A stretch of 64,000 nt of DNA from Candidatus Zhuqueibacterota bacterium (GTDB lineage: Bacteria > Zhuqueibacterota > Zhuqueibacteria > Thermofontimicrobiales > Thermofontimicrobiaceae): the NCBI GenBank assembly GCA_034505795.1, contig JAPDQM010000007.1, forward strand, positions 1,590 through 65,589, given 5' to 3'. Shown here in pieces: positions 1 through 50,101 of this stretch (positions within the stretch are counted from its first letter, which is position 1; every line of letters starts with the position of its first letter). Below the pieces are notes generated by a model. That model had not been told where the DNA came from and made no database searches. It saw nothing but the letters and a program-made list of their open reading frames with translations. A program made the position numbers and the translations under genes.

Positions 1-644
1 ACCCGGAATGAGCCAATTTGCCTGGCGGGGATATCGAAGTGCTTTAGAATTCTTTGTTCGGATTTGTATTGTACAGAACAATCAAAGCATATCCCAATGC
101 AATTTGAAGCTCCTTCTTTTTTGTTTTTTTCTTTGGGCGCTAATATGAGTAAGTCTTGATTCTTCTGCCACCTTATTTCCCAGGCCTCAGGATTGAAATT
201 GTCATCAAATAATGGCGTGAATTCATAAGAATGCAATTCTGAGGCCGCATATTCAAGAATCAGACAATTAATGTCTTCAAGAAAGTAAAGATGCTCGACA
301 ACATCTTTCAGAAAGGTGCGCAAGAGATGATCGGGGTAAATTTTGATTTGTGAAGCCGCTTTTTTTTCAATATGTTGGCCATCAATGACCATTGAGTAGT
401 CTGCGAGATATTTTCGAGACATGACATAAAAACCTTGATGCCCATCCTGAAGAGTGCTACCAGCAAATCCATAGAAGAATGCTGATTGTTTATTGGTAAA
501 TATAAACGGTCTACCTGGCTGCGATGCAACTTCGATGGCGAGTGGTTCGAAGTCGGTCGTTTCGATTGGCATTTTGGTGGCCTTTTGCTTTCCACAATTC
601 AGGAATATTACCAATATTAATAGAATCATGTTGATTCTTTTCAT
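1..644 (-). CDS. hypothetical lipoprotein (partial; runs off the window's left edge, minus strand)
   Basis: Manual reverse-complement translation gives an open frame from an ATG at 644..642 to position 1 with no stop. N-terminus MKRINMILLILVIFLNCGK has a lipobox-like LNCG. No recognisable family. The listed 308..595 ORF is in a different frame and is considered spurious. Confidence 0.45.
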   Translation of the reverse strand, partial: MKRINMILLILVIFLNCGKQKATKMPIETTDFEPLAIEVASQPGRPFIFTNKQSAFFYGFAGSTLQDGHQGFYVMSRKYLADYSMVIDGQHIEKKAASQIKIYPDHLLRTFLKDVVEHLYFLEDINCLILEYAASELHSYEFTPLFDDNFNPEAWEIRWQKNQDLLILAPKEKNKKEGASNCIGICFDCSVQYKSEQRILKHFDIPARQIGSFR

Positions 645-694
645 TGATCTGTTACCCTTCTTAGTTAAAGCATATAGATAGAAGCAGCCGCAAT

Positions 695-1855
695 CTATTT
701 TGAATGATTCAATTTTGCCACCATATCGCGGTGCACCAAGACGCTAAGTATTTTTATCTTAACATAATCATCCCGCAACATGAAATAGCCTTTAAATTGG
801 CCTTTCCAGGCGCTGCCACCGGAGTCTTTGACAAGAAACCAGGTATGATTGCCCATTTTTTGATATCCAACGAGATGCATGGCATGATCATCGGTGGTCG
901 TGTTATTATGAATTCGGAATTCCCGCGCGTTCTGACCAATTGCTGTTGGTGGCAGATCAAAATATGGGATAACGGCGACATCATATTCGCCGTTTCGGCC
1001 AATCTCAGATGTATCGCCAGCAATTGCCAGCGTGTAACCTTGTTTTAGCGCATCCACTATTGTGTTGTAAAACACTTCCAAGGGGACATTCAGATAATCC
1101 TCGCTGTGCCACCAATTATCAGGTGATTTCAATTCGGCTTTTTGATAAAAGGGCGCATACATCACCGACATCAGCGGCACATAATCATCAGGATTCAATT
1201 GCAGATAGTCCTGCATCAATTGATTTGGGGTAATTTCCTTTCCATCTAACGCAATGGTTTTTGGTGGTTCTCCCAAATATTTATTCAAAATGATCTTTGT
1301 GGTAGCGATTACTTGCTCTTCGTCCCAGATCTTATTTTTCGCAATGTAATCCAGATAACTCATTATCTCGCGGAACATTAGCGCGTGATTATGTCGAGTT
1401 CGCCCGTTAATTAGGCCGGAATAATCGGTGGCTCTCACCAATCCATACTGTCGCATTCGCTCTAATACTGCGTTCTGCTCCGAACCTTCGCCAAGGAAGG
1501 AATCGCCATGTTCGCGGACAAACCGCCGGACCTTTTCGACATACTCCCAATAGACAATATACATTTCGGATAATTTGACGGCAGTTCTGCCTTTGCGGAC
1601 CAACTCCGACTCTAAAAATGAGATAGTTGAAAAGCACCAGCAGGTGCCAGTAGTATCCTGGGTTATGGGTGGCAAATGATAGAGCGCATGAAATCCATCC
1701 AGGGTCGCCGGTCGCTGAAGCTTGGAAAAATCCATGGTCAGCACTTTTTGTGTCCGGCCATAGCGATCTTTGGTTTCATAGCGCAGTTCGTCTTGCGCAA
1801 TCAGAAATGGCGCGAGCAATAGAATGAAAACAGAACCATAAAATATCTTTCTCAT
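695..1855 (-). CDS. C1B-family papain-like cysteine aminopeptidase (aminopeptidase C / bleomycin hydrolase-like), secreted
   Basis: Signal peptide MRKIFYGSVFILLLAPFLIAQ. Catalytic Cys context TQDTTGTCWCFSTISF (Q...CW papain motif). His context DHAMHLVGY typical of PepC/bleomycin hydrolase. Confidence 0.7.
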   Translation of the reverse strand: MRKIFYGSVFILLLAPFLIAQDELRYETKDRYGRTQKVLTMDFSKLQRPATLDGFHALYHLPPITQDTTGTCWCFSTISFLESELVRKGRTAVKLSEMYIVYWEYVEKVRRFVREHGDSFLGEGSEQNAVLERMRQYGLVRATDYSGLINGRTRHNHALMFREIMSYLDYIAKNKIWDEEQVIATTKIILNKYLGEPPKTIALDGKEITPNQLMQDYLQLNPDDYVPLMSVMYAPFYQKAELKSPDNWWHSEDYLNVPLEVFYNTIVDALKQGYTLAIAGDTSEIGRNGEYDVAVIPYFDLPPTAIGQNAREFRIHNNTTTDDHAMHLVGYQKMGNHTWFLVKDSGGSAWKGQFKGYFMLRDDYVKIKILSVLVHRDMVAKLNHSK

Positions 1856-1864
1856 CAGAGCTCC

Positions 1865-3196
1865 TTATCGAAAATAATATGGGTATCGGCGCTGTATCTT
1901 TTTTTGTTGCATATAATTTCTTGCCAGGTCCAAAAATATTTCGATATCGCGATCGAGATCAAAGGAGGTGCCATCAAAATAAAACAGGCGAATTGGAAAA
2001 TTGGCACATGCCTTACTCACCTGGGGGTAAACCGTTTCACAAACAATGCCATTCATGCAGGTGAATGGGCTGATGTCAATAACGCCATCTGCGCCATGGT
2101 GGTACAAATAAATCGCCTTGCCAACATTCAACACCATCTCACCCAATGCGCCATTTTGAGGAAGGTATGGGCTACTATAAGCTAAGACCTGTCTGATATC
2201 ATGCGGCTCTTCATATCCCTCAAACTCGGCTCGGAGTGGCTGTAATAAATAGTGTTCATCATGGCGCTGGATGGCAAATTTTATTTTTGCTGCCAACATG
2301 TCGCTTGAGTAACGTTTTCCGGCCCGAATCAATCGCCACCTCTGCTCATCGTTGGTGTACCAGAGCCATTCGGCAATATCGGAAATCCATATTTCGCCGC
2401 CCAATGCTTCGATTTTATTAATGAGGTAATTGTGGCTAAATTCATTTAGCCGACAAAATATCTCTCCAACCACGCCGATAAGGGGCTTATCTTTCGTAAA
2501 GCGTGCGGATAGCGAGTGATATCGCTTATTGGCACGTACTAAGCCTTGCCGCAGTTGCCGCAAGCAATGCCGGGGCCGAAGACCCTGGGTGGCTAAAATT
2601 GAGCTGAGTTCATCGAGACTTTGATGAAAGAGTTCATCAGCTAAATTTCTATTTACTACATAAGGTCGAATTTTTAAATGAAGCTTTCGCAGACAATCGC
2701 TGGCCAATAATGCGTGCCATGAGGTGCGGATGAGGGCTCGAGCGGCCTCACCAAAACCCTCATAACCATTAGCGCTGGTTGGTGAAATGACCAGCGCCTG
2801 CTCGTAACCCCGTTCACGCAGGATCTTTTTGAGCACGGCCTGATATTGGCCGAAACGGCAGGGCCCGCCGGAGGTCGGTAACAAAAAAGCAGTTCTGGCA
2901 GGATCGAATCCCGGGTCGTCGATAACTTTCAAAAAATCGCCCAGCGTGACGCGTTCAGGCAGGCATTCATCGCCATTCAGATATTTCGCGCTCAGTTCTA
3001 GCGTGCTCGAATCCGAAGCTGGCGATGGTTGAGCATGAATACCGGCCGCTTGAAATACAGCCGACATCAGCTTAGCTCCACTGTAGCTCATGCGCGGAAT
3101 ATAAAGCAATCTACCGACTATGGAAGCGCTCTTCTGTGATTGGGTTGACATCGAATCCGTTTCATGTTGTGGCCAAAGCTTCAGCATGGTCATCAA
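1865..3196 (-). CDS. hypothetical protein, possibly CoA-enzyme-activase-associated / 2-hydroxyacyl-CoA dehydratase-like (DUF2229/HgdB-like)
   Basis: 443 aa with several conserved-looking Cys (GGPCRFGQY, FCRLNEF, FTCMNGIVCE) and a VVGEIF.R motif reminiscent of the DUF2229 C-terminal region. Assignment is from memory of the family only. Confidence 0.35.
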   Translation of the reverse strand: MMTMLKLWPQHETDSMSTQSQKSASIVGRLLYIPRMSYSGAKLMSAVFQAAGIHAQPSPASDSSTLELSAKYLNGDECLPERVTLGDFLKVIDDPGFDPARTAFLLPTSGGPCRFGQYQAVLKKILRERGYEQALVISPTSANGYEGFGEAARALIRTSWHALLASDCLRKLHLKIRPYVVNRNLADELFHQSLDELSSILATQGLRPRHCLRQLRQGLVRANKRYHSLSARFTKDKPLIGVVGEIFCRLNEFSHNYLINKIEALGGEIWISDIAEWLWYTNDEQRWRLIRAGKRYSSDMLAAKIKFAIQRHDEHYLLQPLRAEFEGYEEPHDIRQVLAYSSPYLPQNGALGEMVLNVGKAIYLYHHGADGVIDISPFTCMNGIVCETVYPQVSKACANFPIRLFYFDGTSFDLDRDIEIFLDLARNYMQQKKIQRRYPYYFR

Positions 3197-3332
3197 TGCA
3201 GGATTTCAAAATCCTCTGCTGCAATACCTGCGGGCCATGTCTGGTGATGATATTTGCCGCCTTGTCGACGGTCATAAAAACAGACTAACCGATCAAATGG
3301 AAATAGGAGGGCGGATAAGCTGCCATCCTGTT

Positions 3333-5165
3333 TCAAAACGATCGATTGGTTAGCCAGGTTCGTCGAATGAATTGCTGAAAATCGCTTTTGGGTGTGGAAC
3401 TGCTGAGATAGTACCGCTGACTGGCTCGCCCTTTGACTCTGGCCGAAAGCATCAAAAATAATTTATCGCGCTGCACTGAAAAATCGATATAACTGCTAAC
3501 GCCAAGCGTATCGATAATTTGTTCCAAATCACGTGATGAATTTAGCTTGTGATTGGCCAGCGACAGTAACCTATCCCCAACCCTAAGGCCAGCGAAAGCT
3601 AACGGCCCTTTTTCGCTCAAATCCAGAACCTCATTGGTTTCATCGGAGATAACGATATACCCCAAATCAGCTATAGTGTCCGACTGCGAACGAAAGAAAA
3701 TGCCAGCGCTCTGAAATATTGTTTCGATCGGGGGGGGCAGCACACCATCGATGTATTTATCAAAAAATTCCGATACGTCAACGCCGCTCACCGCTTTGAT
3801 GGCTCGTGGCAAGTCCGAGTCTTGATATTCACCGTTATTAAGACCGAACCAATTGTTCATGAACAAAATTACATCATCCAAGGAGCGCTGATTCTTCGAA
3901 AGTTCGCGGATTTGCAAATCAAGCAGCACCCCCACTAAGTGACCTTTAAGCCGAATGAACTGATGCACCCGAGGATCGTTACCGAAAATTAGCGGAAGCT
4001 GGCTTAATGGCGTATTCGAGTATTCGGCATACTGGTTTAAATGATTCATCAAGCGGACGTACTCCTGAATGAACTCATCAGCGGAGATCAAATTCGCTCG
4101 GACCAAATTCAGATGCCCATAGTAATCGCTAACGCCGCTAACAAACCAGTGCCGCTCTATAAGGTCTCTGTTATATGCCTCAGTATTTCCGAAGATTGGA
4201 TAAAAGCGAAAGCCATTCCAGGTTTGAAAAAAATTGCTGGCGACCAGCCGAACGATTTTCAATAAATCATCTCTGGCAGTTTGAACCGGCGCATACACAA
4301 TGCTGCAATTCTCATAGGCTTTGGAAACCAACCGGACGTTGTCGGGATACATTCGAAAGATAAACAAATAAGTGTCAAAAGGAACATCTTTAAAGAGCTG
4401 AAGTTGGTTGGTCATCACCTTATGAGTCAGCACGGACAAAGAGTCGTAATTGAATTTTTTATCACCATCCAATATGATATAGCAAGTACGATTTTGAATA
4501 GTAAAGAAAATATCGGCAAAGGGAGCAATATATAAAGGCCGATTGAGTAGTTGCCGATAGTTATCGGCACGATAAACAAACTGTTGATCGGTCAATGAAA
4601 GCCCGGTAGCCAATTTCCACCGATGTGGAACGCGAACCGATAACACAATTGGCATCTGGTCATATTCACGAACGCACATAAATACAGAAGCACCGTCCAC
4701 CCTGGCAAAGCGTCGACTGAGGCATTCCCCAAGCGCTCGATCTTTCTGGATTTTGATCTTGTAAGAAATAATCACGATGTTACTTTTTTTGGTATTAATC
4801 GACCAGGTATTGGCAGCGGTTTGAGTAATGGCCAGGGTATCGCCATAATCACCAATTGCGCTGATTCTGGTGATGCCGGTCTTAGTAGCGGACTTCTTGC
4901 TTAGCGGATTTAGTTCGGGAATAAAGGCGTAGAGGGATTTTTGCCGATTATTATCAATACTAATGGTGACATTGAAACCATCCCAATTATCTTCATCTAT
5001 TTCTAAATAATACGACAGTTTCTCCTGAGCAGAGACCGGCCTCGCAGCAATTAAGCAGCAAGCGAATGATAGTAGATTGTATGAGAGAAGCCCTGTTGCT
5101 GCTGACCTCAAAAATTTCGATAATTTGCTCAATCCTACCTCCGCCGTCAAAGACTCAACCGACAA
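3333..5165 (-). CDS. M61 (glycyl aminopeptidase)-like protein with C-terminal PDZ domain; zinc ligands degenerate (probable pseudo-peptidase)
   Basis: The segment ..VASNFFQTWNGFRF...HWFVSGVSDYYGHLNLVRANLIS aligns to the M61 signature HEFFHxWN....WFSEGFTSYYGxLLLVRAGLIS. HEXXH is replaced by SNFFQ and the third-ligand Glu by Ser. C-terminal PDZ-like GLRVGDRLLSLANHKL. N-terminal hydrophobic signal/anchor. Confidence 0.6.
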   Translation of the reverse strand: MSVESLTAEVGLSKLSKFLRSAATGLLSYNLLSFACCLIAARPVSAQEKLSYYLEIDEDNWDGFNVTISIDNNRQKSLYAFIPELNPLSKKSATKTGITRISAIGDYGDTLAITQTAANTWSINTKKSNIVIISYKIKIQKDRALGECLSRRFARVDGASVFMCVREYDQMPIVLSVRVPHRWKLATGLSLTDQQFVYRADNYRQLLNRPLYIAPFADIFFTIQNRTCYIILDGDKKFNYDSLSVLTHKVMTNQLQLFKDVPFDTYLFIFRMYPDNVRLVSKAYENCSIVYAPVQTARDDLLKIVRLVASNFFQTWNGFRFYPIFGNTEAYNRDLIERHWFVSGVSDYYGHLNLVRANLISADEFIQEYVRLMNHLNQYAEYSNTPLSQLPLIFGNDPRVHQFIRLKGHLVGVLLDLQIRELSKNQRSLDDVILFMNNWFGLNNGEYQDSDLPRAIKAVSGVDVSEFFDKYIDGVLPPPIETIFQSAGIFFRSQSDTIADLGYIVISDETNEVLDLSEKGPLAFAGLRVGDRLLSLANHKLNSSRDLEQIIDTLGVSSYIDFSVQRDKLFLMLSARVKGRASQRYYLSSSTPKSDFQQFIRRTWLTNRSF

Positions 5166-5360
5166 TTGCGCTTACTCGAATAAATCAAAATTGTTCCCCA
5201 AAACGACTAACGATTGAGGCTGGCGGCCGGCCATTGTGAAAGGGGCAGCCGCTGCCTTTCCCAAATTCAAGAAAATGCCACGGTGATTTTTAATAACAGG
5301 AAGCATTGGTTTCACCAGAAATGCCCACCATGGCATCGTTCAATTGTTGATAATAATAGA

Positions 5361-6608
5361 CTACATGCCATACATGGCAATAATCTCTTCCTTGGTTTTG
5401 CCCAAGATATTATATTTTTTGCCCACTTTTATAAACGCGTCGAGGGCTTTATCCAGGTGATGTTGCTCATGGCCGGCAGAAATTTGCGTTCGGATTCTTG
5501 CCTGGCCTTTGGGCACTACCGGAAAGAAAAAGCCAATGGCATAAATTCCTTCGGCATACAAATCGCGTGAAAAATCCTGCGATAGCTTGGCATTGAACAA
5601 CATGACGGGCACGATTGGGGTATCTCCTTCTTTAAGGATAAAACCAGCCTCGGATAGCCCTTTCCGCCAATAAGCCGCATTTCGTTCCAGCTTATCCCGT
5701 CGTTCCGTGGTTTGCGACAGGATTTCTAAAACTTTCAAAATACCGGATACGATAACCGGCGCCACGGTATTTGAGAACAGATAGGGTCTGGCCCGTTGAC
5801 GGCAAAGTTCAACAATTTCGCGACGTCCGGAAACGCAGCCGCCAGATGCTCCGCCCAATGCTTTGCCGAAGGTTGTCGTAATAATGTCGATCTTGCCAAC
5901 GACGCCATATTTCTCGTGAGTGCCGCGTCCGGTCTTGCCGATAAAACCGGTGGCATGGGAATCGTCGACAAACACCATGGCATCATATTTTTCGGCTAAC
6001 GCCACCATTTCATCGAGCCGAGCGGTGTCTCCATCCATCGAAAAGACGCCATCGGTGATAATTACTTTTAGCCGTTTATCGGCATGGAATTGCAATTTCT
6101 CTTCCAGATGCTCCATATTTGAATGTTTAAATGTATCGTGCTGGGCCTTGCAGAGACGAATGCCGTCAATAATGGACGCATGGACCAGCCGATCTGATAT
6201 CATCACATCCTGTTCATTCAAAATTGCTTCAAATACCCCGGCATTGGCATCCATGCAGGAGGGAAAAAGAACCGTATCTTCGGTGCCCAGAAACTCTGTC
6301 ATTTTCTGTTCCAACTGATGATGGATGTCCTGCGTGCCGCAAATAAAACGAACCGAAGACATGCCGTAGCCTCTGTAATCCAGCCCTTGATGAGCAGCCC
6401 GAATCACTTCTGGATGGCTGGACAGGCCGAGGTAGTTATTTGAACACATATTGATCACTTTTTTCAAATTTGAACCGGCAGGATATTCCACCTCGATGTC
6501 CGCTGCTTGCGGGGCATGAATGAATCGCTCCTCTTTGAAAATCCCCTGATCACGAATAGCCTGCAAGTCCTGCTGGTAAAGTGCACGAATTTGATTACTA
6601 AATGCCAT
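5361..6608 (-). CDS. alpha-oxoamine synthase (serine palmitoyltransferase / cysteate-acyltransferase / Kbl-like PLP enzyme)
   Basis: PLP-lysine motif TTFGKALGGASGG and DDSHATGF, typical of AOS family class II aminotransferases. Start moved to internal ATG 6608 (MAFSNQIRAL), preceded by GGGGAG SD. Sits in an operon with ACP, acyl-AMP ligase and AcpS. Confidence 0.8.
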   Translation of the reverse strand: MAFSNQIRALYQQDLQAIRDQGIFKEERFIHAPQAADIEVEYPAGSNLKKVINMCSNNYLGLSSHPEVIRAAHQGLDYRGYGMSSVRFICGTQDIHHQLEQKMTEFLGTEDTVLFPSCMDANAGVFEAILNEQDVMISDRLVHASIIDGIRLCKAQHDTFKHSNMEHLEEKLQFHADKRLKVIITDGVFSMDGDTARLDEMVALAEKYDAMVFVDDSHATGFIGKTGRGTHEKYGVVGKIDIITTTFGKALGGASGGCVSGRREIVELCRQRARPYLFSNTVAPVIVSGILKVLEILSQTTERRDKLERNAAYWRKGLSEAGFILKEGDTPIVPVMLFNAKLSQDFSRDLYAEGIYAIGFFFPVVPKGQARIRTQISAGHEQHHLDKALDAFIKVGKKYNILGKTKEEIIAMYGM

Positions 6609-6720
6609 AATCGCTTCTCCCCTATTGTCAGTCAGAATTGAACGGAACACATTTTGGAGGCCCTGCCGTTGCGAATCGGCCACCAATTTGGGTTTAAGGG
6701 CTTATTTATTTCTGAGCGAC

Positions 6721-6969
6721 CTAAATAAACTGCCGCACCAATTCACAAATCTTATTTACGGTATCGAATGCTTCTGGAGTCGCTTTTTCATCGGGGATGG
6801 AAATCTTGTATTTATTTTCCAGAAAACGCTTCAATGAAACCATGGAGAACGAATCTACAATTCCGCCAGAAATTAGCGGCGTATTTACGGTTATCTCTTG
6901 ATCTTCATCTTCGAGATACTCTTTTTTCACATAATCGAGCACGATTTTTTGCATTTCATCCATAATCAA
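6721..6969 (-). CDS. acyl carrier protein (dedicated, stand-alone)
   Basis: 82 aa acidic protein with phosphopantetheine-site-like GGIVDSFSMVSL. Strong SD AAGGAGATT before the ATG. Confidence 0.7.
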   Translation of the reverse strand: MIMDEMQKIVLDYVKKEYLEDEDQEITVNTPLISGGIVDSFSMVSLKRFLENKYKISIPDEKATPEAFDTVNKICELVRQFI

Positions 6970-7061
6970 TCTCCTTGAAATTTGCTGTTCAAAATCAACT
7001 ATCGTTGCTAATCGCTAATGAAAGTTTAGGCAAAGTTCGAACTTCGTCCTCCAGCTAAGCA

Positions 7062-8765
7062 TCACTCATTTTCCAGGGTTGAAGTATCACCGATTTCTTC
7101 CCCCCATTCTTTGGCACGCAGGAGGCGACGCATGATTTTGCCACTTCGGGTTTTAGGCAACGAATCTACGAATTCAATCTCCTGGGGCATGGCCAGTGGG
7201 GAAAGTTTTTTTCGAATAAAATTCATGATGTTCAACTCCAGTTCAGCATCGGCATTGTAACCCGGTTTGACCGCTACAAATGCTTTTACGACTTCCATAT
7301 TGATCGGATCTGGCTTGCTAACAACCGCGGACTCGGCCACAGCTTCATGCTCTAACAATGCTGATTCAACCTCAAATGGGCTAACGAGGTGACCGCCGGT
7401 GTTAATGACGTCGTCGTCGCGGCCGACAAACCAAAAATAGCCGTCATTATCAATGGTCGCCCGGTCACCAGAGATGTACCACCCATTGATAAATTTTTTC
7501 TGAAAAGTAGCCTCATTTTTCCAGTAGGTTCGAATCATTGCGGGCCAGCCAGGTTTGAATGCAATCAAACCAATAGTACCGTTTCGGGATAGCGGCTCGT
7601 GCGTTTTTGGATCCAATACCGTCCCTGTTATGCCGGGGAATGGTTTGCCCATGGATCCGGGCTTTATTTTCATTCCAGGATAGTTGCTGATCATGATCGA
7701 GCCAGTTTCGGTCTGCCAATAGGTATCATGGAATGGCAAACCAAATACTTTTTCCGACCAGATAACTGCCTCGGCATTTAACGGCTCGCCCACACTGGCC
7801 AGATGACGCAAGGAACTGAGATCGTATTTTTTTACAATTTCATTACCCGCTTTCATCAGGGAGCGAATGGCGGTGGGGGCAGAGTACCAAACGGTGATGC
7901 GATATTTTTCGATAAATTTATACCAGGCATCAGCGGAAAAACCCGCATCCAGAACGCATTGGGTAATGCCCAGACTCCAGGGGCCGATAATCCCATACGA
8001 GGTGCCTGTTACCCATCCTGGATCGGCGGTACACCAGTAAATATCGTCGTCATGCAAATCCAGCACCCATTTGGTCGTCAAATATTGAGAGATTAATGAG
8101 TAATGTACATGTTGAACGCCTTTGGGCATACCAGTAGTTCCAGAAGTATAATGCAGAACCGACGGCGTCTCTGCCGTTGATGGAAAAATTTCAAGATCTT
8201 CAACAGGTGGAATGCTTTCCAATAGAAAGGCAACTTCTCGCTCTGGGAGTGGCTTGGGATCATCATAGTCAATGATGATAATATGCTTCAACGCGGGCAA
8301 TTTATCTTTAATTTTGCGCACCTTGGCAACATGTTTTTTTTGAGTGATAATGGCCGTGGTAGCAGCATTTTCGAGCCGTACAAACAACGACTCATCGCCA
8401 AAGGCAGAAAACAACGGCTGAGCAATGGCACCAATCTTCAAAATTCCAAGAAAGCCGATGTACAGCTCTGGCACACGATCCAGAAATAGGCACACGCGAT
8501 CACCATTTTTAATGCCTAAGTTTTTGAGGAAAGCGCCAATAGTATTGCTGGCCAGTCGGATTTCATTAAACGTATACTGCTTTTGCTTGCCGCTTGATCC
8601 CTCCCACAGCAACGCAATTTTATTTGCGCGACCCAGTTGACAGTTACGGTCAGCGCAATACCAGCCAATATTGATGGTAGCACCGGGTTTGTAGCCAAGT
8701 TCCTTCTCTGAAATCGACCAATCAAAATTCTTTACACGTTCTTCGTAAGATCCGATGTGTGACAT
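7062..8765 (-). CDS. AMP-dependent acyl-CoA/acyl-ACP synthetase (ACS/ACSM-like adenylate-forming ligase)
   Basis: AMP-binding motif HYTSGTTGMPKGV, YWQTETG, and C-terminal SGKIMRR lysine motif. SD AGGAGAG before the start. Confidence 0.8.
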   Translation of the reverse strand: MSHIGSYEERVKNFDWSISEKELGYKPGATINIGWYCADRNCQLGRANKIALLWEGSSGKQKQYTFNEIRLASNTIGAFLKNLGIKNGDRVCLFLDRVPELYIGFLGILKIGAIAQPLFSAFGDESLFVRLENAATTAIITQKKHVAKVRKIKDKLPALKHIIIIDYDDPKPLPEREVAFLLESIPPVEDLEIFPSTAETPSVLHYTSGTTGMPKGVQHVHYSLISQYLTTKWVLDLHDDDIYWCTADPGWVTGTSYGIIGPWSLGITQCVLDAGFSADAWYKFIEKYRITVWYSAPTAIRSLMKAGNEIVKKYDLSSLRHLASVGEPLNAEAVIWSEKVFGLPFHDTYWQTETGSIMISNYPGMKIKPGSMGKPFPGITGTVLDPKTHEPLSRNGTIGLIAFKPGWPAMIRTYWKNEATFQKKFINGWYISGDRATIDNDGYFWFVGRDDDVINTGGHLVSPFEVESALLEHEAVAESAVVSKPDPINMEVVKAFVAVKPGYNADAELELNIMNFIRKKLSPLAMPQEIEFVDSLPKTRSGKIMRRLLRAKEWGEEIGDTSTLENE

Positions 8766-9151
8766 AGACTCTCCTGCTCTAAAATGATAATAGCAACCGC
8801 CATTTGATTAAGATGCGAAACTGAGACATGTATTTTTGACACATGCAAAGCGTCAATTATTTTTTGAGCTTGCCCCGAAACGACAATGCTTGGCTTCCCC
8901 AATTCGTCATTTGTCATTGCGACGTCCCGCCATGATAATCCTTTTCGCCAGCCGGTGCCAATCGCTTTAAAAAAGGCTTCTTTGGCGGCAAAGCGAACAG
9001 CATAATTTTGCGCTTTGTTCTTTAGCTTGCTCTCACAATAGCTCACCTCGCTATCGCTGAAGACTCTGCGAATAAAACTTTCAGCGCCGGAACCCAGTTG
9101 CTTTTCAATTCGCGGGACCTCAATGATATCAATGCCGATACCCACTATCAA
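8732..9151 (-). CDS. acpS: holo-[acyl-carrier-protein] synthase (4'-phosphopantetheinyl transferase)
   Basis: MIVGIGIDIIEVPRIEK...FAAKEAFFKAIGTG is a classic AcpS signature. Its 3' end overlaps the ligase start by 34 nt (translational coupling). Confidence 0.8.
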   Translation of the reverse strand: MIVGIGIDIIEVPRIEKQLGSGAESFIRRVFSDSEVSYCESKLKNKAQNYAVRFAAKEAFFKAIGTGWRKGLSWRDVAMTNDELGKPSIVVSGQAQKIIDALHVSKIHVSVSHLNQMAVAIIILEQESLCHTSDLTKNV

Positions 9152-9188
9152 TTCAACAATTCCTTTCCCTCGAAAGTTTTCTCCGAGC

Positions 9189-12100
9189 TCATCGAATAAG
9201 CAGCAACTTCTTCTGCAGGTTTAGATCAGACACTCTGAGCTGATAGAAATATACTCCTGACGCCACAGGTTCGCCCTTATCGCCAGTACCGTCCCAGAAT
9301 GCTGTGTAATACCCTTTGGCCTGAAGACCTGCAATCAAAGTTCGCACCTTCTGACCGTTGAGATTAAATATATCCAGTGTCACCTGCTGAAAAGATTCCC
9401 CTGCAATTTGATAATCAATCCGCGTCCAGCGATTGAAGGGGTTGGGATAGTTTTGGGCTAATTTATATTCGGTTGGTACGGGCAGCATAATATGGCCGCC
9501 TGGCTCCATGGTAACAATGGGCTGTGAACTGATCTCGATATTATCAATAAAAACGCCGGTAATCTTCCCCGGTGGCAGCGGCTCGTCGTCACTCACCCAC
9601 CGGAATCGCACTCGACTTAACGTGCCAGCAGCGATATCGGAGAGATCGTAATTATATGGCAACCAATCATTACCCATCAATACCGAATCCAGCGCTCCGC
9701 CGCTTCCGATGAAATCTAATTTCCGCCATTTCAAACCATCAAATACGTCGACATAAAAACCATTCACGCCATAGATAGCCACATTAAACCAGGCCCAGAA
9801 TGTCAGTCGGCTATTGTGACCCAGATAAAAAGCTGGACTTTCAAGCGTGGCGTCGTCATGGGGCAGATAATTGCCTGTGGCTTCGTCACCACAATACCAG
9901 GAATAGCCCCCAGAATAAGGATTTTGGGTTGACAGATGCCAATGATTGGACATTGCGTTGGGTCGATACCATCCTCCTGTCCCGTGTTCAAGATCGTCCT
10001 GGAAGCCAGTTGCTCCGATGGTCAGGTGGAACAACGGCGAGAACAGAAATCCCTCCTCGGTGGTGATGTTCAAACGAAAATCCGGAAACGATGGAATTGG
10101 CGGTTGTAGCGCCTGCACGATGAATGAATCCACAGCCATCTGCCCTGGAGCTATCGTTCCCCAGGCGCTGATTTTGGGATCGATTTGAATTTGGGGATCA
10201 GTGGTAGTGAGCGTCGACCGAACGTTATGAGCACTGGCCAGGCCATTGTTGACCACGCCAATGGTCAAACGGAATTTTTCACCGGGCTCAGGAATCGAAT
10301 TGCCGTTTCCCCATTCCCTGTCGTTGATTTCTTGATGTGAGAGCGAAATTACAGGGGCAGCGTTGGTCAAGGCAAGGGTTTGATTCCAGGCCAGGCCGGA
10401 CTCAGCTAAGATTTGGGCATTCAAATGCAAAACATATCCATTGGGGCATTGACGATCAACGGCGAGGATCAAGACATCCATGCATTCGGTGCTATCATTG
10501 GCAGCAATAGAACCGGCGATAGCGCTGGGATCGATCATGGTAATAAATGAATCGGTTGAAGTGACCGTTACAGTCACTTGATTCGCATCTGCCGCGCCAA
10601 GATTTTTCAATCTTAGCTTGAGGTGAACAGTTTCGCCCGGATTGATCAACCCATCTCCATTCCCTGTGCGATCATCAATGCCAAGATCGGAGCAAATTAC
10701 ATAAGGTGCGCTGGATTGAACTGCAATCGTCTTTTCAACGGGTAAAAAATTAGATGCCGTCACCGTGAGTTCGATTGGTTTTGAAGCATCTGTCACCGAA
10801 ATAGCGAATTGAATCTGCCCTGCGGCATCGGTGCGGCCATATTCATAGATAGTTTCAGCTTGCCTGAGACACACCAGGGCCTCTTCAAGTGGCGAACTGC
10901 GGTGAGTTACTGTGACTGGAATAACGGAATTGCCGATGTTTACCCGGGCGGGTGCTTGAACATTCAGATGGGAGGGAGCGTCCGTCCATACTGGCATTTC
11001 AGGATCACCCAGTAAATTGATTTCATACATGCACCAGCGGTAGACATTCTCTTGCCGGGCAAATGGCACATAATAAGCTTTGGCTAAGGCTAACGCCAGG
11101 CCCAAATTGTGGACCCGCTCTTTGAACAAAAAACGAAAAAACTGAAAGTCAAACCGATCAGAATAGCCATAGCCAGGATTGCCTGGCGAACCCCAGCCAT
11201 AGCGAGAGTTGCCGATAAAAGCCACTCCCCCGCCATTGGGATTATTCACATAATCTTCTGCAATGCAATCGACTTCAAAATTGGCCGGGTAGCAACCGAT
11301 GGAATAGAGAATACCTTGCATGGTACCATTGGTCAATGTCTGCATGTCCGCTCTTCGGAAATAGCCGTCCCCCATTCCCATGACATTGGCGCTGGCATGG
11401 CCATGGTGGTTAATGATATGTTGGCCGGCGTCAATAGCCGTGCGAACCGTGGCGATGGATTCATTGCCCAGGTCTTCATATAGCTTGGTGATCTCATAAA
11501 AATTAGGAGGCAAATATGCCTGTTCAATCATATCTTTGCCGATTCCAGTATTGGTATATGGATTGGCCCACAGGATCTCGGCAGCAAACAGCATCTTGCG
11601 CAAATATCCTTGCGGAGGATTTTTCTCATAAGTCAACACTTTATCAACAAAGACCTTCGCTTCCGCTGCATCTTCGACCGGCGCCCGGCCAACAATGACC
11701 TCAGGAATCATATTAATTTCATCGGCAATTTCGCCGAAAATCTGATCGCCATCATCATTCCAGGAGCCATCCAGATCCGCGTAGTACAGATCGCACGGAA
11801 TTTCGTTCTCCCGACGATCGCCGCCGAACTTGCAATCCATAGCAAAAGCGGTTCTGGCGGGGATAATGTTCACATCGCCTCCCAAAAGCACCCAATACAC
11901 GCCCCAGAGCTTCACTGCCTGGCGGATAAAATTTCGGATTTGTTCTTGCCTGTCTGAGCCTGCAAACTTGGCATAAATGTATTCGGTTGTTACGATAGTT
12001 GCTGGAACGCCTTTTTTGGTTTTCCAATCCAGAAGAGGCTTGAAATTGCTTTCCAGCGAACTGCTGGTAATAATTAAATATTCATATTTCGGAGTTGATT

Positions 12101-12779
12101 CAGATGCTTCATCTTTGGCAAGCGGTTTTTTCATCAGTAAAGAGCCAGCCATGTTTTTTACGAGCTTCGATGCCAGGATAGCAGAGAACTCAGTTTCGCT
12201 GATGGCATTTTGGGTCTGATGGTAACTTTCCTGCGTTGCAATGACTTGAAAGAGGATGTCTGAATAAAAAAACAGCTTTTGTTCTGCGGGATGATATTGC
12301 AGCGGATAAACACGAAGCGCAACAAGTTTGATGGCGCCCAAACGTGCCTCTCCCGCTAATTCGATGACTTGTGCGGGAAATGCGGCTTCGGAGGCATAGA
12401 TGCGCGCATTGGGTGTTGGAACATCGATTGCAGAGCTGTTTTTTGAATGTGCGGAAAGGATTTCTGGCCGAATTGCTGGAAGAATCGAATAATTTCCAGT
12501 CAGCAATTCAGGTTCTACCGCGGTCATTTCGATGTGATCGACGCGTTCATCGACTGGAATGGCCAGGTGAATAATTTGAAACGGTAGTTGTGGCGCTCCT
12601 ACCTGCGACGACAGTTCCAGCCCTTTCATAGTAACCACGTCAAAGTGGTAGCTTTTTGAAAATGCCAAATCGAGCTTATTAAAATGGTGGCTCACACTGA
12701 TATTTCTTGAATTCGAGATTTGAGTGACCATCAGCGTGAAGAACAATGTTTTGCTTATTAGGCAAATTAATTTTTTCAT
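9189..12779 (-). CDS. C25 (gingipain-like) cysteine peptidase with Ig/CARDB-like repeats and T9SS C-terminal sorting domain
   Basis: Signal peptide. YEYLIITSSSLESNFKPLLDWKTKKGVPATIV (C25 N-terminal core), putative catalytic His IINHHGHAS and Cys YSIGCYPANF. C-terminus LAQNYPNPFNRWTRIDYQ... is a Por/T9SS CTD. Confidence 0.7.
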   Translation of the reverse strand: MKKLICLISKTLFFTLMVTQISNSRNISVSHHFNKLDLAFSKSYHFDVVTMKGLELSSQVGAPQLPFQIIHLAIPVDERVDHIEMTAVEPELLTGNYSILPAIRPEILSAHSKNSSAIDVPTPNARIYASEAAFPAQVIELAGEARLGAIKLVALRVYPLQYHPAEQKLFFYSDILFQVIATQESYHQTQNAISETEFSAILASKLVKNMAGSLLMKKPLAKDEASESTPKYEYLIITSSSLESNFKPLLDWKTKKGVPATIVTTEYIYAKFAGSDRQEQIRNFIRQAVKLWGVYWVLLGGDVNIIPARTAFAMDCKFGGDRRENEIPCDLYYADLDGSWNDDGDQIFGEIADEINMIPEVIVGRAPVEDAAEAKVFVDKVLTYEKNPPQGYLRKMLFAAEILWANPYTNTGIGKDMIEQAYLPPNFYEITKLYEDLGNESIATVRTAIDAGQHIINHHGHASANVMGMGDGYFRRADMQTLTNGTMQGILYSIGCYPANFEVDCIAEDYVNNPNGGGVAFIGNSRYGWGSPGNPGYGYSDRFDFQFFRFLFKERVHNLGLALALAKAYYVPFARQENVYRWCMYEINLLGDPEMPVWTDAPSHLNVQAPARVNIGNSVIPVTVTHRSSPLEEALVCLRQAETIYEYGRTDAAGQIQFAISVTDASKPIELTVTASNFLPVEKTIAVQSSAPYVICSDLGIDDRTGNGDGLINPGETVHLKLRLKNLGAADANQVTVTVTSTDSFITMIDPSAIAGSIAANDSTECMDVLILAVDRQCPNGYVLHLNAQILAESGLAWNQTLALTNAAPVISLSHQEINDREWGNGNSIPEPGEKFRLTIGVVNNGLASAHNVRSTLTTTDPQIQIDPKISAWGTIAPGQMAVDSFIVQALQPPIPSFPDFRLNITTEEGFLFSPLFHLTIGATGFQDDLEHGTGGWYRPNAMSNHWHLSTQNPYSGGYSWYCGDEATGNYLPHDDATLESPAFYLGHNSRLTFWAWFNVAIYGVNGFYVDVFDGLKWRKLDFIGSGGALDSVLMGNDWLPYNYDLSDIAAGTLSRVRFRWVSDDEPLPPGKITGVFIDNIEISSQPIVTMEPGGHIMLPVPTEYKLAQNYPNPFNRWTRIDYQIAGESFQQVTLDIFNLNGQKVRTLIAGLQAKGYYTAFWDGTGDKGEPVASGVYFYQLRVSDLNLQKKLLLIR

Positions 12780-12809
12780 AATGCCATTCCAGCAGATTAT
12801 TCGGTAACA

Positions 12810-15176
12810 TCAGGGCAAGTGGATCATTTTTTGGGCCATCATTGTCTTATATGGTTCAAGTAGTCTCAGTCGATAAAAATAGACTCCTGCAGCTACCGCA
12901 TGGCCTTCGTGATCGCGAGCATCCCACATGACCTCATGGCTACCAGGAACTTGAAATACAAGATCGAACGAGCGGATAATTTGCCCAATGGCATTAAAGA
13001 TTTCAAGTTTTGCTGTCGTTGGGGCAGCGACCTCAATTCTTATTTGCGTTTGGCCATTGAATGGATTGGGATAATTTTGCGCCAGCAGAGCCGAGCCCGG
13101 CATGGTTTCGCGGTGTGACATGGCAACGGATGTTAGCGTCAAATCCTGGGTTCCCCCTGCCTTATGATAGCGCTCGGCGAACTCCTGCAAGTACAGATTA
13201 GCAATGAGGGGGCTCTTGATGATCAAAAAATTTTCGTCATTGCTATTTTCAGCCGCATTGCTCCAATTATACGACCCGGTGACCAGCGCTGAGTTGCCTG
13301 AACGGCCATCGCCATCGATGATCAAATATTTATGATGCAGATATTTTGCTTCTTTATCGAGATGCACATCAGCGGGCGGGTTCCAGGGCTGGCTGCCAGT
13401 GCCAATCAAATTATAATACTGGCTACCAGATAAGTCTTCGCCATCAATCACTCCTTTGATCTTAAACTCAGGAACAGTTTTCCATTTTCCATACATGGCA
13501 TTGGCGATTGAGGACTGGTTGAATGTCAACATGCAGAAATACAACGCGTGCTGTGCTTGCTCGATAGCAGCTAACAAAGCCTCCTGACCATGATCCGAGG
13601 GGCTCATATATTGTAGTACTTCGACACCGTTGATATTAAAACGGTGCGGCGTATTCTCAGTCTTGCGATAACCGAAGCGAGATTTGGCAGGATCAGGTGC
13701 GTCACGGTCACTGCCCCACATTTCATTAAACTCGATCGTATAGCATTCTGCCAGGGCTTGATCCTGGATTTCGATGACATTTTCGGCATTATACAATCGG
13801 GCGGATTCGGTGGCATTATATGAGCCGGTCCAGACCCAGTCGTCAGCAGCCGAGGTGGTGTCGCGATGATCGACAATCATGAATTTATTGTGCATTGCGG
13901 CATTACCGTTGTTGTCGCCAAAACGATCATTAATGATGGGCACGTTGGCATTTTTGAGGAATTGAACGGCATCGCTGTCGCCAGGTCGCTGGGAATCGTA
14001 ATCATAGATAACCCGAACTTTCACCCCGCGCTGAAATGCGCCTACCAATAGGCCTGCGGCTTCATCCAAAAAATAGAAACAGAAGTCGATCGAATACCTG
14101 GCCCCTTCGATACGCGCACCGAGCTTATTCAGTAGATTCGCCTTTTCGGCGTTGACACCAAACTGAGCATAACCTGGATCCACCGACTGATTAAAATAGA
14201 CATTCATTTTGCCGGTAGATGATGGGTTCGAGGCACTCATGACAATGCGATCCGCCGAATATTGATAATTGCCATTTGTGCCGGCTCCGACCCTGACATG
14301 ATACAGGGTTGCCGGCCATAATTGGGCCAAATGTACCAGATGGTTTTTCACTGATTCCTGTACGACAATGGTATCGATTTCATAATTTGAGGTTTTGCCA
14401 TAAATGACAATGGAATTCGTGGCGCTCTGAGTTTGCCATGTTAGGTCCATCGAGTATGGCAAAATATTTTTTTCGACCGGTCCAGAAACGATATCTAAAA
14501 CTGAGTTGTCGATGACATCGGCTTTGAATCGAGGCAGCAGTTGGTAGCCCTGGGTGTAAGGACTTTCGGGATCGTATTGCTGAATCACACCGATGACATC
14601 GAAGCGAGCGGCCGGCGCCGAGGTATTGCTCAAGTCGGTATCTTTGTCAATTCGAATTTCACAGGAACCCGTAGCATCGGTCAGAATAAAATTACTGCCA
14701 GCCCCAGAAACCGTCCATTTGCTGGTGTTGACAGCCACGTTGTTGATGCGAACCAATTGTCCCTCCAGCTTTTCGACACCATTGGCCCCCTCAGTGGCCA
14801 CATCCAAACAGGTAATGAGCTTTGGCACAACAGATGGAGCTCTGGGCACGCGAAGCAAAATTGTGACATTTTTTAATTCTGTCAATCCACTATACTGAGT
14901 CACGGTGCCAGAGATTTTAACCGAATCACCAATATTTACTTTAGAAGCGAAGTTTGCATCATAGATGGCTACTCCGCCGGTGCGATCCTGGATCGAGCCG
15001 GTAATGCCAAACTGATTGCTGACGGTAACTTCGCCAACGATGGTGACGGTCTGATTCAACAAGATTGGAACGCCCTGGGCGTCATTTTGATGAAGAGTAG
15101 CGATGTCGATAACTTGAGCCACCGCGGAGTTAACTAGAAAAATTAAGCCAAGAAGGATGCCATTTTTTTTCAACAT
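12810..15176 (-). CDS. secreted phospholipase D-superfamily protein (two HKD motifs; nuclease/PLD-like) with T9SS C-terminal domain
   Basis: HKD motif 1 MHNKFMIVDH...GSYNATESA. HKD motif 2 LHHKYLIIDGDG...GSYNWSNAAE. Start set at ATG 15176 (MLKKNGILLGLIFLVNSAVAQ signal peptide, SD GAGGA). C-terminus LAQNYPNPFNGQTQIRIE is a T9SS CTD. Confidence 0.75.
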   Translation of the reverse strand: MLKKNGILLGLIFLVNSAVAQVIDIATLHQNDAQGVPILLNQTVTIVGEVTVSNQFGITGSIQDRTGGVAIYDANFASKVNIGDSVKISGTVTQYSGLTELKNVTILLRVPRAPSVVPKLITCLDVATEGANGVEKLEGQLVRINNVAVNTSKWTVSGAGSNFILTDATGSCEIRIDKDTDLSNTSAPAARFDVIGVIQQYDPESPYTQGYQLLPRFKADVIDNSVLDIVSGPVEKNILPYSMDLTWQTQSATNSIVIYGKTSNYEIDTIVVQESVKNHLVHLAQLWPATLYHVRVGAGTNGNYQYSADRIVMSASNPSSTGKMNVYFNQSVDPGYAQFGVNAEKANLLNKLGARIEGARYSIDFCFYFLDEAAGLLVGAFQRGVKVRVIYDYDSQRPGDSDAVQFLKNANVPIINDRFGDNNGNAAMHNKFMIVDHRDTTSAADDWVWTGSYNATESARLYNAENVIEIQDQALAECYTIEFNEMWGSDRDAPDPAKSRFGYRKTENTPHRFNINGVEVLQYMSPSDHGQEALLAAIEQAQHALYFCMLTFNQSSIANAMYGKWKTVPEFKIKGVIDGEDLSGSQYYNLIGTGSQPWNPPADVHLDKEAKYLHHKYLIIDGDGRSGNSALVTGSYNWSNAAENSNDENFLIIKSPLIANLYLQEFAERYHKAGGTQDLTLTSVAMSHRETMPGSALLAQNYPNPFNGQTQIRIEVAAPTTAKLEIFNAIGQIIRSFDLVFQVPGSHEVMWDARDHEGHAVAAGVYFYRLRLLEPYKTMMAQKMIHLP

Positions 15177-15420
15177 AATCCTCAATGTTATGTTCAAGGC
15201 GCACATTAGTTCTGGAAGCGCACTGCGAATTGCAGTCTCTCGGGGAAATTTTTGTTGCCCTAAATATAAACATAAATAATTTTTCAGTCAAGTACATTAT
15301 CTGAAAAATTGCTTGAATTTTAATCCAGCAAGTGGTAAATTGAACTCCAGTAATGCTCATTGAGTATATAAAAATGACCAATTGCACGATGATTGGCAGG
15401 GCACAACTTTGAGGCGATTT

Positions 15421-23601: not shown

Positions 23602-23671
23602 CGATGTCAAATTTGGTCCCAGCTAAAATCACGGGATAATTTGCATCCAGCGTAACATGGAGGAATTGACT

Positions 23672-32711: not shown

Positions 32712-32728
32712 AAGTGCGAGGCCTAAAA

Positions 32729-42489: not shown

Positions 42490-43066
42490 GTCATCGCCTC
42501 ATTTGTTTAGCCGTGTAATTTAATACTTTTTTGCAAATAGTCAACAACTTTTTTCCAGCAATATGTTTATCCACCCCAACCCTAACAGCGCCTCTTAGCA
42601 AGTTGCGCGGTTAGGCATTCGTCTCGAGTCGAATTGTCAGCGATCGGTCTTCTTAAAAGACCAACCGCTTCACGATAATTTCAGCTAACAATTTTAAGAC
42701 TTCAAAATGAATTTAATGGAAGAAACGCTTTCAGCGAAGGAATCAAATTGTTTCAGCAACGAACAGTTGCTTGTATTCAGATACAATTTTGTATTTAGCA
42801 CAGACTGCAGCGTAGACTCCGAGCGACCCATGAGGCAATTTCATCGCCGGCTCAGATCGCTGGGACATGTCGTCGGTGCTGATAGTTTTTATTTTAATTA
42901 TGAGATGATCGGTGCAATAGAAAATTGCATGGATTAACGACCACTAAAAAAATGCAAACACCAGCCCAACACGGCATGGTATTTGCAAAAATCGCCCACA
43001 GATCAATTTCCTAAGATCGTATTCCCTCTAAATCGAGCAGTTGTGAATCAAGCAGGAGTATCACGA

Positions 43067-49970: not shown

Positions 49971-50101
49971 ACCCAGCAAAAATTGCCTTGGGAACTTTGT
50001 TCGTGAAATAATTCACTCTGCTGGTCAATCTTACAGTGACAGCTAATACACTTCCTGACATTTTTGCCACCACTATTTTCAGTCCTGCAGGCGGAGGCAG
50101 C

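Follow-up and report, generated by a model that had tools for sequence, protein, structure and literature searches.

A gene on the reverse strand of a 64,000-nucleotide stretch of DNA from a Candidatus Zhuqueibacterota genome (assembly GCA_034505795.1, contig JAPDQM010000007.1, positions 1,590 to 65,589; the whole stretch is henceforth called the window) encodes a homologue of the family M61 peptidases, here termed pseudo-M61, in which both zinc-binding His, the catalytic Glu, and the Glu serving as third zinc ligand have been replaced. As far as can be judged from sequence, pseudo-M61 is a genuine and conserved pseudo-enzyme, neither an error nor a decaying gene, across candidate division KSB1 and Zhuqueibacterota. 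The full reading, i.e., that it is a Sec-exported M61-PDZ pseudo-enzyme that died in place and serves for binding or as a scaffold, without catalysis, was assigned a probability of roughly 0.6. Regarding its parts, it is very probable that pseudo-M61 is not a metallopeptidase but functional, and a PDZ-centred binding role is proposed tentatively, at somewhat short of even odds. The gene and its features are listed below; residue numbers throughout refer to the 610-amino-acid (aa) open reading frame (ORF).

3333..5165, reverse strand: mechanical ORF of pseudo-M61-PDZ from the ORF listing, 610 aa, opening at TTG 5165
3333..5132, reverse strand: most likely coding sequence, 599 aa plus stop (upstream GGAGG and alignment with ortholog Met)
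5028..5132, reverse strand: predicted Sec-type signal peptide, residues 12-46 (basic n-region MSKLSKFLR, hydrophobic core, VSA/Q with the slash marking the cleavage site placed by eye)
4524..5006, reverse strand: Peptidase_M61_N beta-domain, residues 54-214 (Pfam PF17899, E 3.4e-19, 69.9 bits at a cutoff of 23)
4308..4325, reverse strand: SKAYEN, residues 281-286, in place of the GG(L/M)EH exopeptidase motif (hmmalign, translation)
4029..4253, reverse strand: remnant of the M61 catalytic (thermolysin-like) domain, residues 305-379 (PF05299, E 7e-7, 30.1 bits at a cutoff of 22)
4224..4238, reverse strand: SNFFQ, residues 310-314, in place of HExxH (coordinates verified by translation)
4137..4139, reverse strand: Ser343 in WFvSG, in place of the third-ligand Glu of WxxEG (alignments; coordinates verified by translation)
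3396..3698, reverse strand: PDZ domain, residues ~490-590 (Pfam PDZ_2 and PDZ_6; clade profile against DegQ PDZ1; strands and helices of the model at 490-589)
3336..3395, reverse strand: C-terminal helix with conserved Q597, R601, W604, and L605, common to active M61-PDZ proteins

A preliminary description, made from the letters of this DNA, had claimed that SNFFQ stands where HExxH is expected and Ser where the downstream Glu is expected, and both hidden Markov model (HMM) and structure alignments place these changes on the ligand positions. In the phmmer alignment with the solved structure 4fgm_A, the query reads lvaSNffQtWNgf over lccHEyfHsWNik and WFvSGvsdYy over WFyEGmtsYf, and the substitutions of His by S310, Glu by N311, His by Q314, and Glu by S343 were confirmed to be real. 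The third zinc ligand, which we take to be the Glu of WxxEG (the counterpart of WLNEG in family M1), is Glu in all 110 HExxH-bearing M61 representatives. The register was confirmed, and a scan of the whole protein found neither HExxH nor HxxEH anywhere in pseudo-M61, i.e., the motif does not lie elsewhere in the protein and the compared segment is not a different part of M61. An alternative catalytic motif elsewhere in pseudo-M61 was considered and rejected, as none exists. Across 17 aligned sequences of the clade lacking the ligands (henceforth the dead clade), no His or Cys is invariant, which makes an alternative zinc site implausible.

The claim of a three-ligand loss was correct but incomplete, as the erosion reaches further. 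The GG(L/M)EH motif, the counterpart of GAMEN in M1 and the anchor of the substrate N-terminus, is gone; three registers were obtained for this region (MAFFT, hmmalign, and profile-4fgm), of which none was relied on singly, and no register yields a Glu conserved in the clade (E285 varies between E, Q, K, D, S, G, and T). The WxPGxY loop of the N-domain (W85, P87, G88, and Y90 equivalents) is degenerate and was modelled with a predicted local distance difference test (pLDDT) score <50 at residues 87-95. Site conservation was compared between 26 members of the dead clade and 110 canonical M61 representatives: the equivalents of W85, G88, Y90, D204, D208, K319, D330, Y331, H310, H314, and E343 are conserved to at least 80% in the latter but variable in the clade, constraint is also lost at the equivalents of P87 and R320, and D208, lost in the dead clade, is 100% conserved in active M61s. 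Together with the GGxEH motif, about 10 further positions conserved in active M61s have been lost from pseudo-M61.

In fold and architecture, pseudo-M61 was shown to be a homologous member of family M61. The PF05299 match spans only profile positions 3-78 of 118, and phmmer against PDB sequences found the solved M61 structure 4fgm_A (E 1.4e-13); a profile of the clade hit 4fgm at E 7.8e-35 in the same register as the single-sequence alignment. An AlphaFold2 (AF2) model computed on the family alignment (pLDDT 84.8, predicted template modelling score 0.81) has the M61 fold, in agreement with the structure prediction check proposed in the preliminary description. Foldseek with this model retrieved 4fgm first (E 1.6e-37, template modelling (TM) scores 0.73/0.76), followed by 8j9c and 7xyo and then by M1 aminopeptidases, with IRAP/ERAP as next-best fold matches (TM ~0.48). 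The fold search returned M61 and M1 structures alone, and Pfam gave no M23 or LytM match. The architecture, i.e., an M61_N beta-domain, a thermolysin-like and a helical domain, and a C-terminal PDZ with a terminal helix, is that of M61-PDZ proteins (4fgm of Idiomarina loihiensis IL1258; 8j9c of Xanthomonas campestris; the Sphingomonas glycyl aminopeptidase type), and the structural motifs FxxWN, WFxxGxxxYY, KGxLxxLLLDLxIR, and RSLDD are kept. The PDZ domain is retained as had been stated: PDZ_2 matches residues 507-568 (E 1.7e-5, 25.4 bits), the clade profile matches DegQ PDZ1 (E 1.1e-11), and orthologs carry precomputed PF13180/PF17820 PDZ matches. It keeps the xLGx carboxylate-binding loop (D500-L501-G502-Y503) and the GLrvGD motif (GLxxGD), and L501, G502, G526, G530, and D531 are invariant in the clade alignment. 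NCBIfam gave no M61-type match for pseudo-M61, just weak similarity of the PDZ region to HtrA, RseP, and SpoIVB models.

The loss is shared throughout the clade. A search of 5.8 billion proteins returned a 100%-identical partial protein from a metagenome-assembled genome (MAG) of candidate division KSB1 and 17 relatives at 37-81% identity, all of which have [SG][NSD][FS]F[QRH] instead of HExxH and S, N, or Y at the third-ligand position; distant matches at 19-24% identity retain HE[FL]FH and EG. The clade was widened by a scan of one genome per species and by searching 1.84 billion cluster representatives exhaustively with a profile (9051 matches at E<=1e-3), which together added members at 34-40% identity with the motif/third-ligand pairs SSFFK/D, S[SN]L[YF]K/L, TNLFT/W, and SGLFS/H. 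In total, ~25 relatives at 34-81% identity were obtained, all of them without zinc ligands. Relatives and their loci carry working labels (L or P with a number) where they have to be told apart; the window protein together with P0002-18, P0025-30, L008, L009, and L011 shows the motif [SGT][NSDG][FLS][FY][QKRHTS] and S, N, Y, L, D, A, W, or H at the third-ligand site. Where hosts of the dead clade are named, they are MAGs of KSB1 and of Candidatus Zhuqueibacterota, and some of the bins were automatically labelled "uncultured Cytophagia". Zhuqueibacterota are a lineage of the Fibrobacteres-Chlorobi-Bacteroidetes (FCB) superphylum related to KSB1 (PMC11683472).

Beyond this clade, canonical motifs were lacking in 46 of the 156 best near-full-length representatives, a list that is enriched for degenerate forms since dead-clade sequences had gone into the query profile. 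Of these 46, 26 belong to the dead clade and 6 to a second clade with an R-E-F-F-K motif, and the rest are scattered in the tree among active branches (P0116/P0161, P0098/P0124/P0148, P0110, P0128, P0166, and P0062), implying independent losses. Loss of catalytic residues in M61 hence seems to have happened repeatedly. In a recurrent SEFFH group (P0056/60/83/94/140/141), only the first His is changed, to Ser, all else being intact, and these S-E-x-x-H proteins may still bind metal.

The pseudo-M61 gene is maintained and not decaying, because the ratio of nonsynonymous to synonymous substitution rates (dN/dS) is ~0.09-0.14: it was 0.097 for the window against L003, 0.091 for the window against L005, and 0.144 for L003 against L005 (dS 0.21, unsaturated). 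In the same comparisons, dN/dS was ~0.09 for the gene of a neighbouring C1-like peptidase, 0.12-0.22 for that of a C25 peptidase, and 0.02-0.03 for Kbl and an Acs-like ligase, which places pseudo-M61 close to the neighbouring exported peptidase genes and above the housekeeping genes. The 17 aligned dead-clade sequences share 89 invariant columns. A conserved loss in orthologs, rather than a sequencing error, had been named in the preliminary description as the outcome that would speak for a new function, and this is what the absence of ligands from all ~25 clade members and the dN/dS of ~0.1 amount to.

Constraint was further resolved by domain in pairs of sequences matched for overall identity (30-40% and 40-50%), with the identity of each domain divided by that of the whole protein. 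The catalytic domain reached 1.14-1.16x in active M61s and 0.87-0.89x in the dead clade, the PDZ domain 0.70-0.74x and 0.98x, the N-domain 0.95x and 1.03-1.05x, and the helical domain 1.12x and 1.12-1.13x, respectively. The catalytic domain thus went from the most to the least conserved, and the PDZ domain from the least conserved to about average. This suggests that the selected function sits largely in the PDZ domain and other non-catalytic surfaces, and a new catalytic centre is disfavoured by the variability of the former ligand positions, at which no new residues have become fixed. Since the motifs are lost, the catalytic domain is the least conserved, and the PDZ domain is relatively more conserved, pseudo-M61 cannot be filed as an M61 peptidase but only as a non-peptidase homologue.

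The origin of pseudo-M61 can be traced by phylogeny and gene order. In a neighbour-joining tree of profile-aligned columns with 100 bootstraps, the dead clade alone was recovered in 100/100 replicates, the dead clade plus the second degenerate clade (P0034, P0036-40) in 75/100, and both degenerate clades plus three active proteins (P0031, P0032, and L010) in 96/100. The second degenerate clade of M61-PDZ proteins has R-[EQ]-F-F-[KRQ], i.e., both zinc His are replaced by basic residues, and the catalytic Glu as well as the third-ligand Glu/Asp are mostly kept; one member, P0040, has HTFFH and Asp. Its Arg/Lys may occupy the place of the metal ion, and the clade could be an intermediate stage or a separate route of inactivation.

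Around the dead form, the gene order AcpS, Acs-like ligase, acyl carrier protein (ACP), Kbl, pseudo-M61, DUF2229-like protein, C1-like peptidase, and GDE_C glycosidase is kept in L001, L002, L003, L005, L008, and L011. Two active forms lie directly after AcpS-Kbl as well: L010 (a KSB1 MAG, contig JAFGOE010000118.1; GGGLEF, HEFFH, WFIEG), whose Pfam Peptidase_M61 score is 114.5 bits as compared to 30 bits for pseudo-M61, and L013 (metagenome Ga0272441_10018368; GGLEH, HEFFH, WFCEG). Neither Kbl nor AcpS was found near any of 79 other M61 loci from metagenomes. As L010 and L013 follow AcpS-Kbl while these 79 loci do not, the dead protein sits in the ancestral slot of the active enzyme, which points to an ortholog inactivated in place. 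The active KSB1 M61-PDZ proteins (L010, L013; P0031, P0032) are the closest active relatives at 30-31% identity and occupy the same slot; they share YxLEIDExNWxSF, RVPHGWK(L/V)A, and RS(L/M)DDVxRFMNxWF with pseudo-M61 but, unlike it, keep GGLE(H/F), HEFFH, and WF(C/I)EG and have different downstream genes. No active M61 paralog was found within the window.

The true start of pseudo-M61 is likely TTG 5132, giving a product of 599 aa, because this codon (5130-5132) has GGAGG (5138-5142) upstream with a 5-nt spacer and aligns with the ATG/Met of orthologs beginning with MSKLS, 11 codons inside the mechanical ORF. From its N-terminus, judged by eye, the protein would be exported by Sec and signal peptidase I to the periplasm or envelope. 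The mature N-terminus is probably Gln, since Gln47 is invariant across the dead clade in the family alignment. The AF2 model has an N-terminal helix at residues 10-39, and the active KSB1 M61 relatives carry a signal-peptide-like N-terminus as well. A lipoprotein was considered and dropped, as the Cys36/37 pair is unconserved and a lipobox is absent. A promoter and terminator scan of 3100-5450 was uninformative, with counts no higher than in shuffled sequence.

Combining these data, the following course of events is proposed. The common ancestor of a KSB1/Zhuqueibacterota lineage would have carried an M61-PDZ gene just 3' of kbl, which would have lost all three zinc ligands (two His and a Glu), the catalytic Glu, and the GGxEH motif anchoring the N-terminus; other positions close to the active site would have drifted afterwards, with the fold, PDZ, helical domain, and N-domain staying under purifying selection. 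The PDZ domain would then recognise proteins or peptides of the envelope, at their C-termini or at extended stretches, while the dead M61 body would provide a platform, and pseudo-M61 would be an adaptor, regulator, or holder, not a hydrolase. Because GGxEH, the WxPGxY loop, and D208 are eroded too, a role of the PDZ domain or the surface is more likely than simple binding of substrate in the former active site. The roles suggested in the preliminary description, i.e., decoy, chaperone, or regulator, are conceivable.

Several points weigh against the binding or scaffold reading. The inactivity of pseudo-M61 is deduced from its sequence, its signal peptide was called by eye and not with a dedicated predictor, and its own PDZ_2 score lies slightly below the gathering cutoff of 27 bits. 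The genomic surroundings point to no partner: most of the adjacent genes encode cytoplasmic housekeeping proteins, and in L009 the gene of the C1-like peptidase does not lie beside that of pseudo-M61. Pseudo-M61 is also the fastest-evolving gene of the syntenic block, at 43% identity to L001 as compared to 56-91% for its neighbours, which fits a loosely constrained role. Lastly, binding via the PDZ domain or surface draws on domain-level statistics and not on three-dimensional conservation mapping.

The best functional analogy for pseudo-M61 is offered by degenerate LytM (M23) proteins, e.g., EnvC, NlpD, DipM, and SpoIIQ, which belong to the bacterial envelope, stem from zinc metallopeptidases whose ligands they no longer have, and bind or regulate partners (amidases, for instance) in place of catalysis, although fold and family are unrelated (M23 as opposed to MA-clan M61/M1). 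TAF2, a non-peptidase M1 homologue, uses an M1-type fold as a non-catalytic scaffold after zinc-ligand loss; it differs from pseudo-M61 in being eukaryotic and nuclear and in having no PDZ, and the homology is remote only. Along these lines, pseudo-M61 might be a lineage-specific periplasmic adaptor whose PDZ domain and closed former cleft capture particular proteins or peptides of the envelope and either pass them on to an exported protease, e.g., the C1-like peptidase, or activate it; this is a speculative and rather unlikely extension. If true, such an adaptor would be to M61 what the degenerate-LytM regulators are to M23, and would give a non-catalytic bacterial protein of M61/M1 type its first assigned function.

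The remaining explanations depend largely on the neighbouring genes, which are as follows.

695..1855, reverse strand: C1-like (C1_2, PepC/bleomycin-hydrolase-type) peptidase with a signal-peptide-like N-terminus, two genes downstream of pseudo-M61
1865..3196, reverse strand: DUF2229-like protein of ~420 aa without signal peptide, directly downstream of pseudo-M61
5361..9151, reverse strand: block of AcpS, acetate-CoA-ligase-family protein, ACP, and Kbl, between pseudo-M61 and the C25 gene
9189..12779, reverse strand: C25 (gingipain-like) peptidase with propeptide, CARDB/DUF11-like immunoglobulin domains, and a C-terminal sorting domain of the type IX secretion system (T9SS), five genes upstream of pseudo-M61
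12810..15206, reverse strand: phospholipase-D-like (PLD-like), purple-acid-phosphatase-N protein with a FlgD_ig-type tail, adjoining the C25 gene

A sub-case of the binding-protein reading is that pseudo-M61 serves specifically to regulate or activate a second hydrolase of the envelope, with the C1-like peptidase as the obvious candidate. Both proteins have signal-peptide-like N-termini, and the order pseudo-M61, DUF2229-like, C1_2 is kept in L001, L002, L003/4/5, L008, and L011 at 37-81% pseudo-M61 identity and is tightly packed in L008 (gaps of 13-21 bp), whereas the loci of the active forms L010 and L013 have no such pair downstream. However, the DUF2229-like gene without signal peptide lies in between, C1_2 is missing from the 6 kb downstream of the pseudo form in L009, and gaps of ~140-230 bp flank pseudo-M61 on either side in the window. 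Housekeeping genes of no related function (Kbl, Prs, ACP, GDE_C glycosidase) moreover belong to the block, whose synteny may thus reflect inherited order only. The C1-like peptidase is the one candidate for a partner that the context offers, and a weak one, and its dedicated regulation by pseudo-M61 is improbable. The preliminary description had placed the gene in a run of secreted peptidases; the C1-like gene two positions downstream and the C25 gene five positions upstream are indeed there, but they do not form a functional cluster, as the genes between are cytoplasmic. A peptidase operon was accordingly dropped: the C25 gene is present at the block only in the closest relatives L003 and L005, and L001/L002 have a PLD-like T9SS protein and an alcohol dehydrogenase (ADH) in its place.

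Hydrolysis by non-canonical chemistry in the old cleft, using other metal ligands or no metal, could be argued from the strong purifying selection and retained M61 fold, and from the facts that position 310 stayed Ser or Gly (88% Ser) and that Y284 and N286 of SKAYEN are invariant. Such an activity is nonetheless quite improbable: the clade lacks an invariant His or Cys, positions 311 (N/S/D/G), 314 (Q/K/R/H/T/S), and 343 (Y/S/L/N/A/W/D/H) vary in a manner unlike a newly fixed centre, the catalytic domain is now the least conserved, and both the N-terminus-anchoring motif and D208 are lost.

Less probable still is a coupling of pseudo-M61 to the upstream Kbl/ACP/ligase/AcpS pathway, either as glycine supply from Gly-peptides or in lipid or aminolipid synthesis. 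The order AcpS-(Acs-like)-(ACP)-Kbl-M61 is kept whether the M61 protein is active or dead, none of the 79 other M61 loci has it, and some M61 enzymes prefer N-terminal Gly/Ala, a glycine-supply link having been discussed for Neisseria (PMC13104608). Against this, pseudo-M61 would be exported and Kbl, Acs, and ACP are cytoplasmic, and a dead peptidase cannot release glycine. Kbl (580 bits at NCBIfam equivalog cutoffs of 460/493, glycine C-acetyltransferase) and the ligase (768.7 bits at a cutoff of 729, acetate-CoA ligase PRK04319) also exceed the cutoffs for the ordinary enzymes. Furthermore, an extra segment of ~1.2 kb separates Kbl from pseudo-M61 in L008/L011 and contains, in L008, a phosphoribosyl pyrophosphate synthetase (Prs) gene, and an Rfam scan of 1..13500 gave zero matches at E<=1, i.e., no riboswitch or RNA element. 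A sphingolipid or aminolipid (ceramide-like) cluster, suggested by the resemblance of the upstream AcpS, AMP-ligase, ACP, and alpha-oxoamine synthase genes to the ceramide genes of bacteria, was likewise considered and dropped, as NCBIfam assigned Kbl and acetate-CoA ligase and serine palmitoyltransferase models scored far below their cutoffs. The last alternative, a slowly decaying functionless relic or an assembly or sequencing artefact, for which the divergence (greatest in the syntenic block) and the Pfam catalytic-domain score eroded to 30 bits could be cited, is effectively refuted by intact full-length ORFs in ~25 independent assemblies or lineages down to 34% identity, by the dN/dS and invariant columns given above, and by the recurrence of the same substitutions in independent metagenomes.

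Some observations concern the neighbourhood itself. AcpS, the ligase, a stand-alone ACP of 80-82 aa, and a Kbl-type alpha-oxoamine synthase are kept in L001, L002, L003, L005, L008, and L011; the ACP has a weak match to the ACP of the ornithine-lipid OlsHI system, and a zinc-ADH (Tdh-like) gene lies nearby in L001 and L002. A dedicated ACP and AcpS beside Acs/Kbl is odd and could indicate an acyl-ACP-dependent condensation pathway. The DUF2229-like protein (also L001 11882-13168 and L008 9810-11093) is 64-88% identical across loci, far better conserved than pseudo-M61. Its gene lies directly 3' of the dead M61 in every dead-form locus with enough downstream sequence and is not 3' of the two active forms; the protein itself reached the threshold of no family in either Pfam or NCBIfam and resembles, faintly, just the N-terminal part of DUF2229 ("CoA enzyme activase" domain). 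The remaining window is ordinary chromosome (valyl-tRNA synthetase, RecG, T9SS cargo proteins). It includes tandem overlapping paralogs of ~900 aa at 29982..32711 and 32708..35410 on the forward strand, which have near-identical N-terminal motifs (APTTSFWDCGEFITC.YILGVPHPPGAP) and look like membrane proteins.

A Gln was further seen, by eye, right after the signal-peptide core in eight predicted exported proteins of the window, encoded at the following positions.

695..1855, reverse strand: Gln after the core (C1-like peptidase)
3333..5132, reverse strand: Gln after the core (pseudo-M61)
12810..15206, reverse strand: Gln after the core (PLD-like protein)
15382..18354, forward strand: Gln after the core
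19606..20406, forward strand: Gln after the core
23657..25039, forward strand: Gln after the core
42983..45955, forward strand: Gln after the core
50036..52729, forward strand: Gln after the core

The contexts, with a slash after the Gln, are IAQ/D, SAQ/E, VAQ/V, HGQ/Y, QGQ/E, LAQ/E, YAQ/Q, and TAQ/Q, and the active M61 of L013 has LAQ/V. KSB1 may thus follow a "Q-rule" of the Bacteroidetes type; the paper that introduced this rule states that it does not extend to all of the FCB group (PMC5837995).

Pseudo-peptidases as such are well known, and pseudo-M61 overturns nothing in this respect. Characterised M61 proteins are all zinc enzymes, i.e., aminopeptidases, which prefer Gly/Ala or acidic residues and fall into three phylogenetic branches (PMC13104608), and MfuP (PDB 7xyo), a zinc-dependent endopeptidase of a Myxococcus lanthipeptide cluster (PMC10885120). 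MfuP is the third-best fold match to the pseudo-M61 model but is catalytically active and resides in a gene cluster for a ribosomally synthesised and post-translationally modified peptide; it illustrates that M61 proteins diversified beyond glycyl aminopeptidase activity. In a 2019 survey of microbial PDZ proteins, the M61-PDZ group was functionally uncharacterised (PMC6411480). The preliminary description regarded inactive M61 homologs as uncharacterised, in line with which searches aimed at inactive or non-peptidase M61 homologs found no literature on them.

Family M61 is barely characterised, and what is known comprises a handful of aminopeptidases, a single lanthipeptide endopeptidase, and structures from structural genomics. 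Compared with its active members, pseudo-M61 is without HExxH, the Glu of WxxEG, and GGxEH, and its catalytic domain is the least and not the most conserved; by its sequence it would be a clean and testable case of an envelope aminopeptidase turned pseudo-enzyme with an active syntenic comparator. The locus represents a clean natural experiment, in which an active and a dead form of one gene occupy the same slot in related uncultured bacteria and purifying selection has long preserved the dead form, and it makes testable both the role of the non-catalytic part of M61-PDZ proteins and the route from a periplasmic aminopeptidase to a binding protein. The case also bears on annotation, since too many peptidases are counted in KSB1/Zhuqueibacterota and in M61 as a whole.

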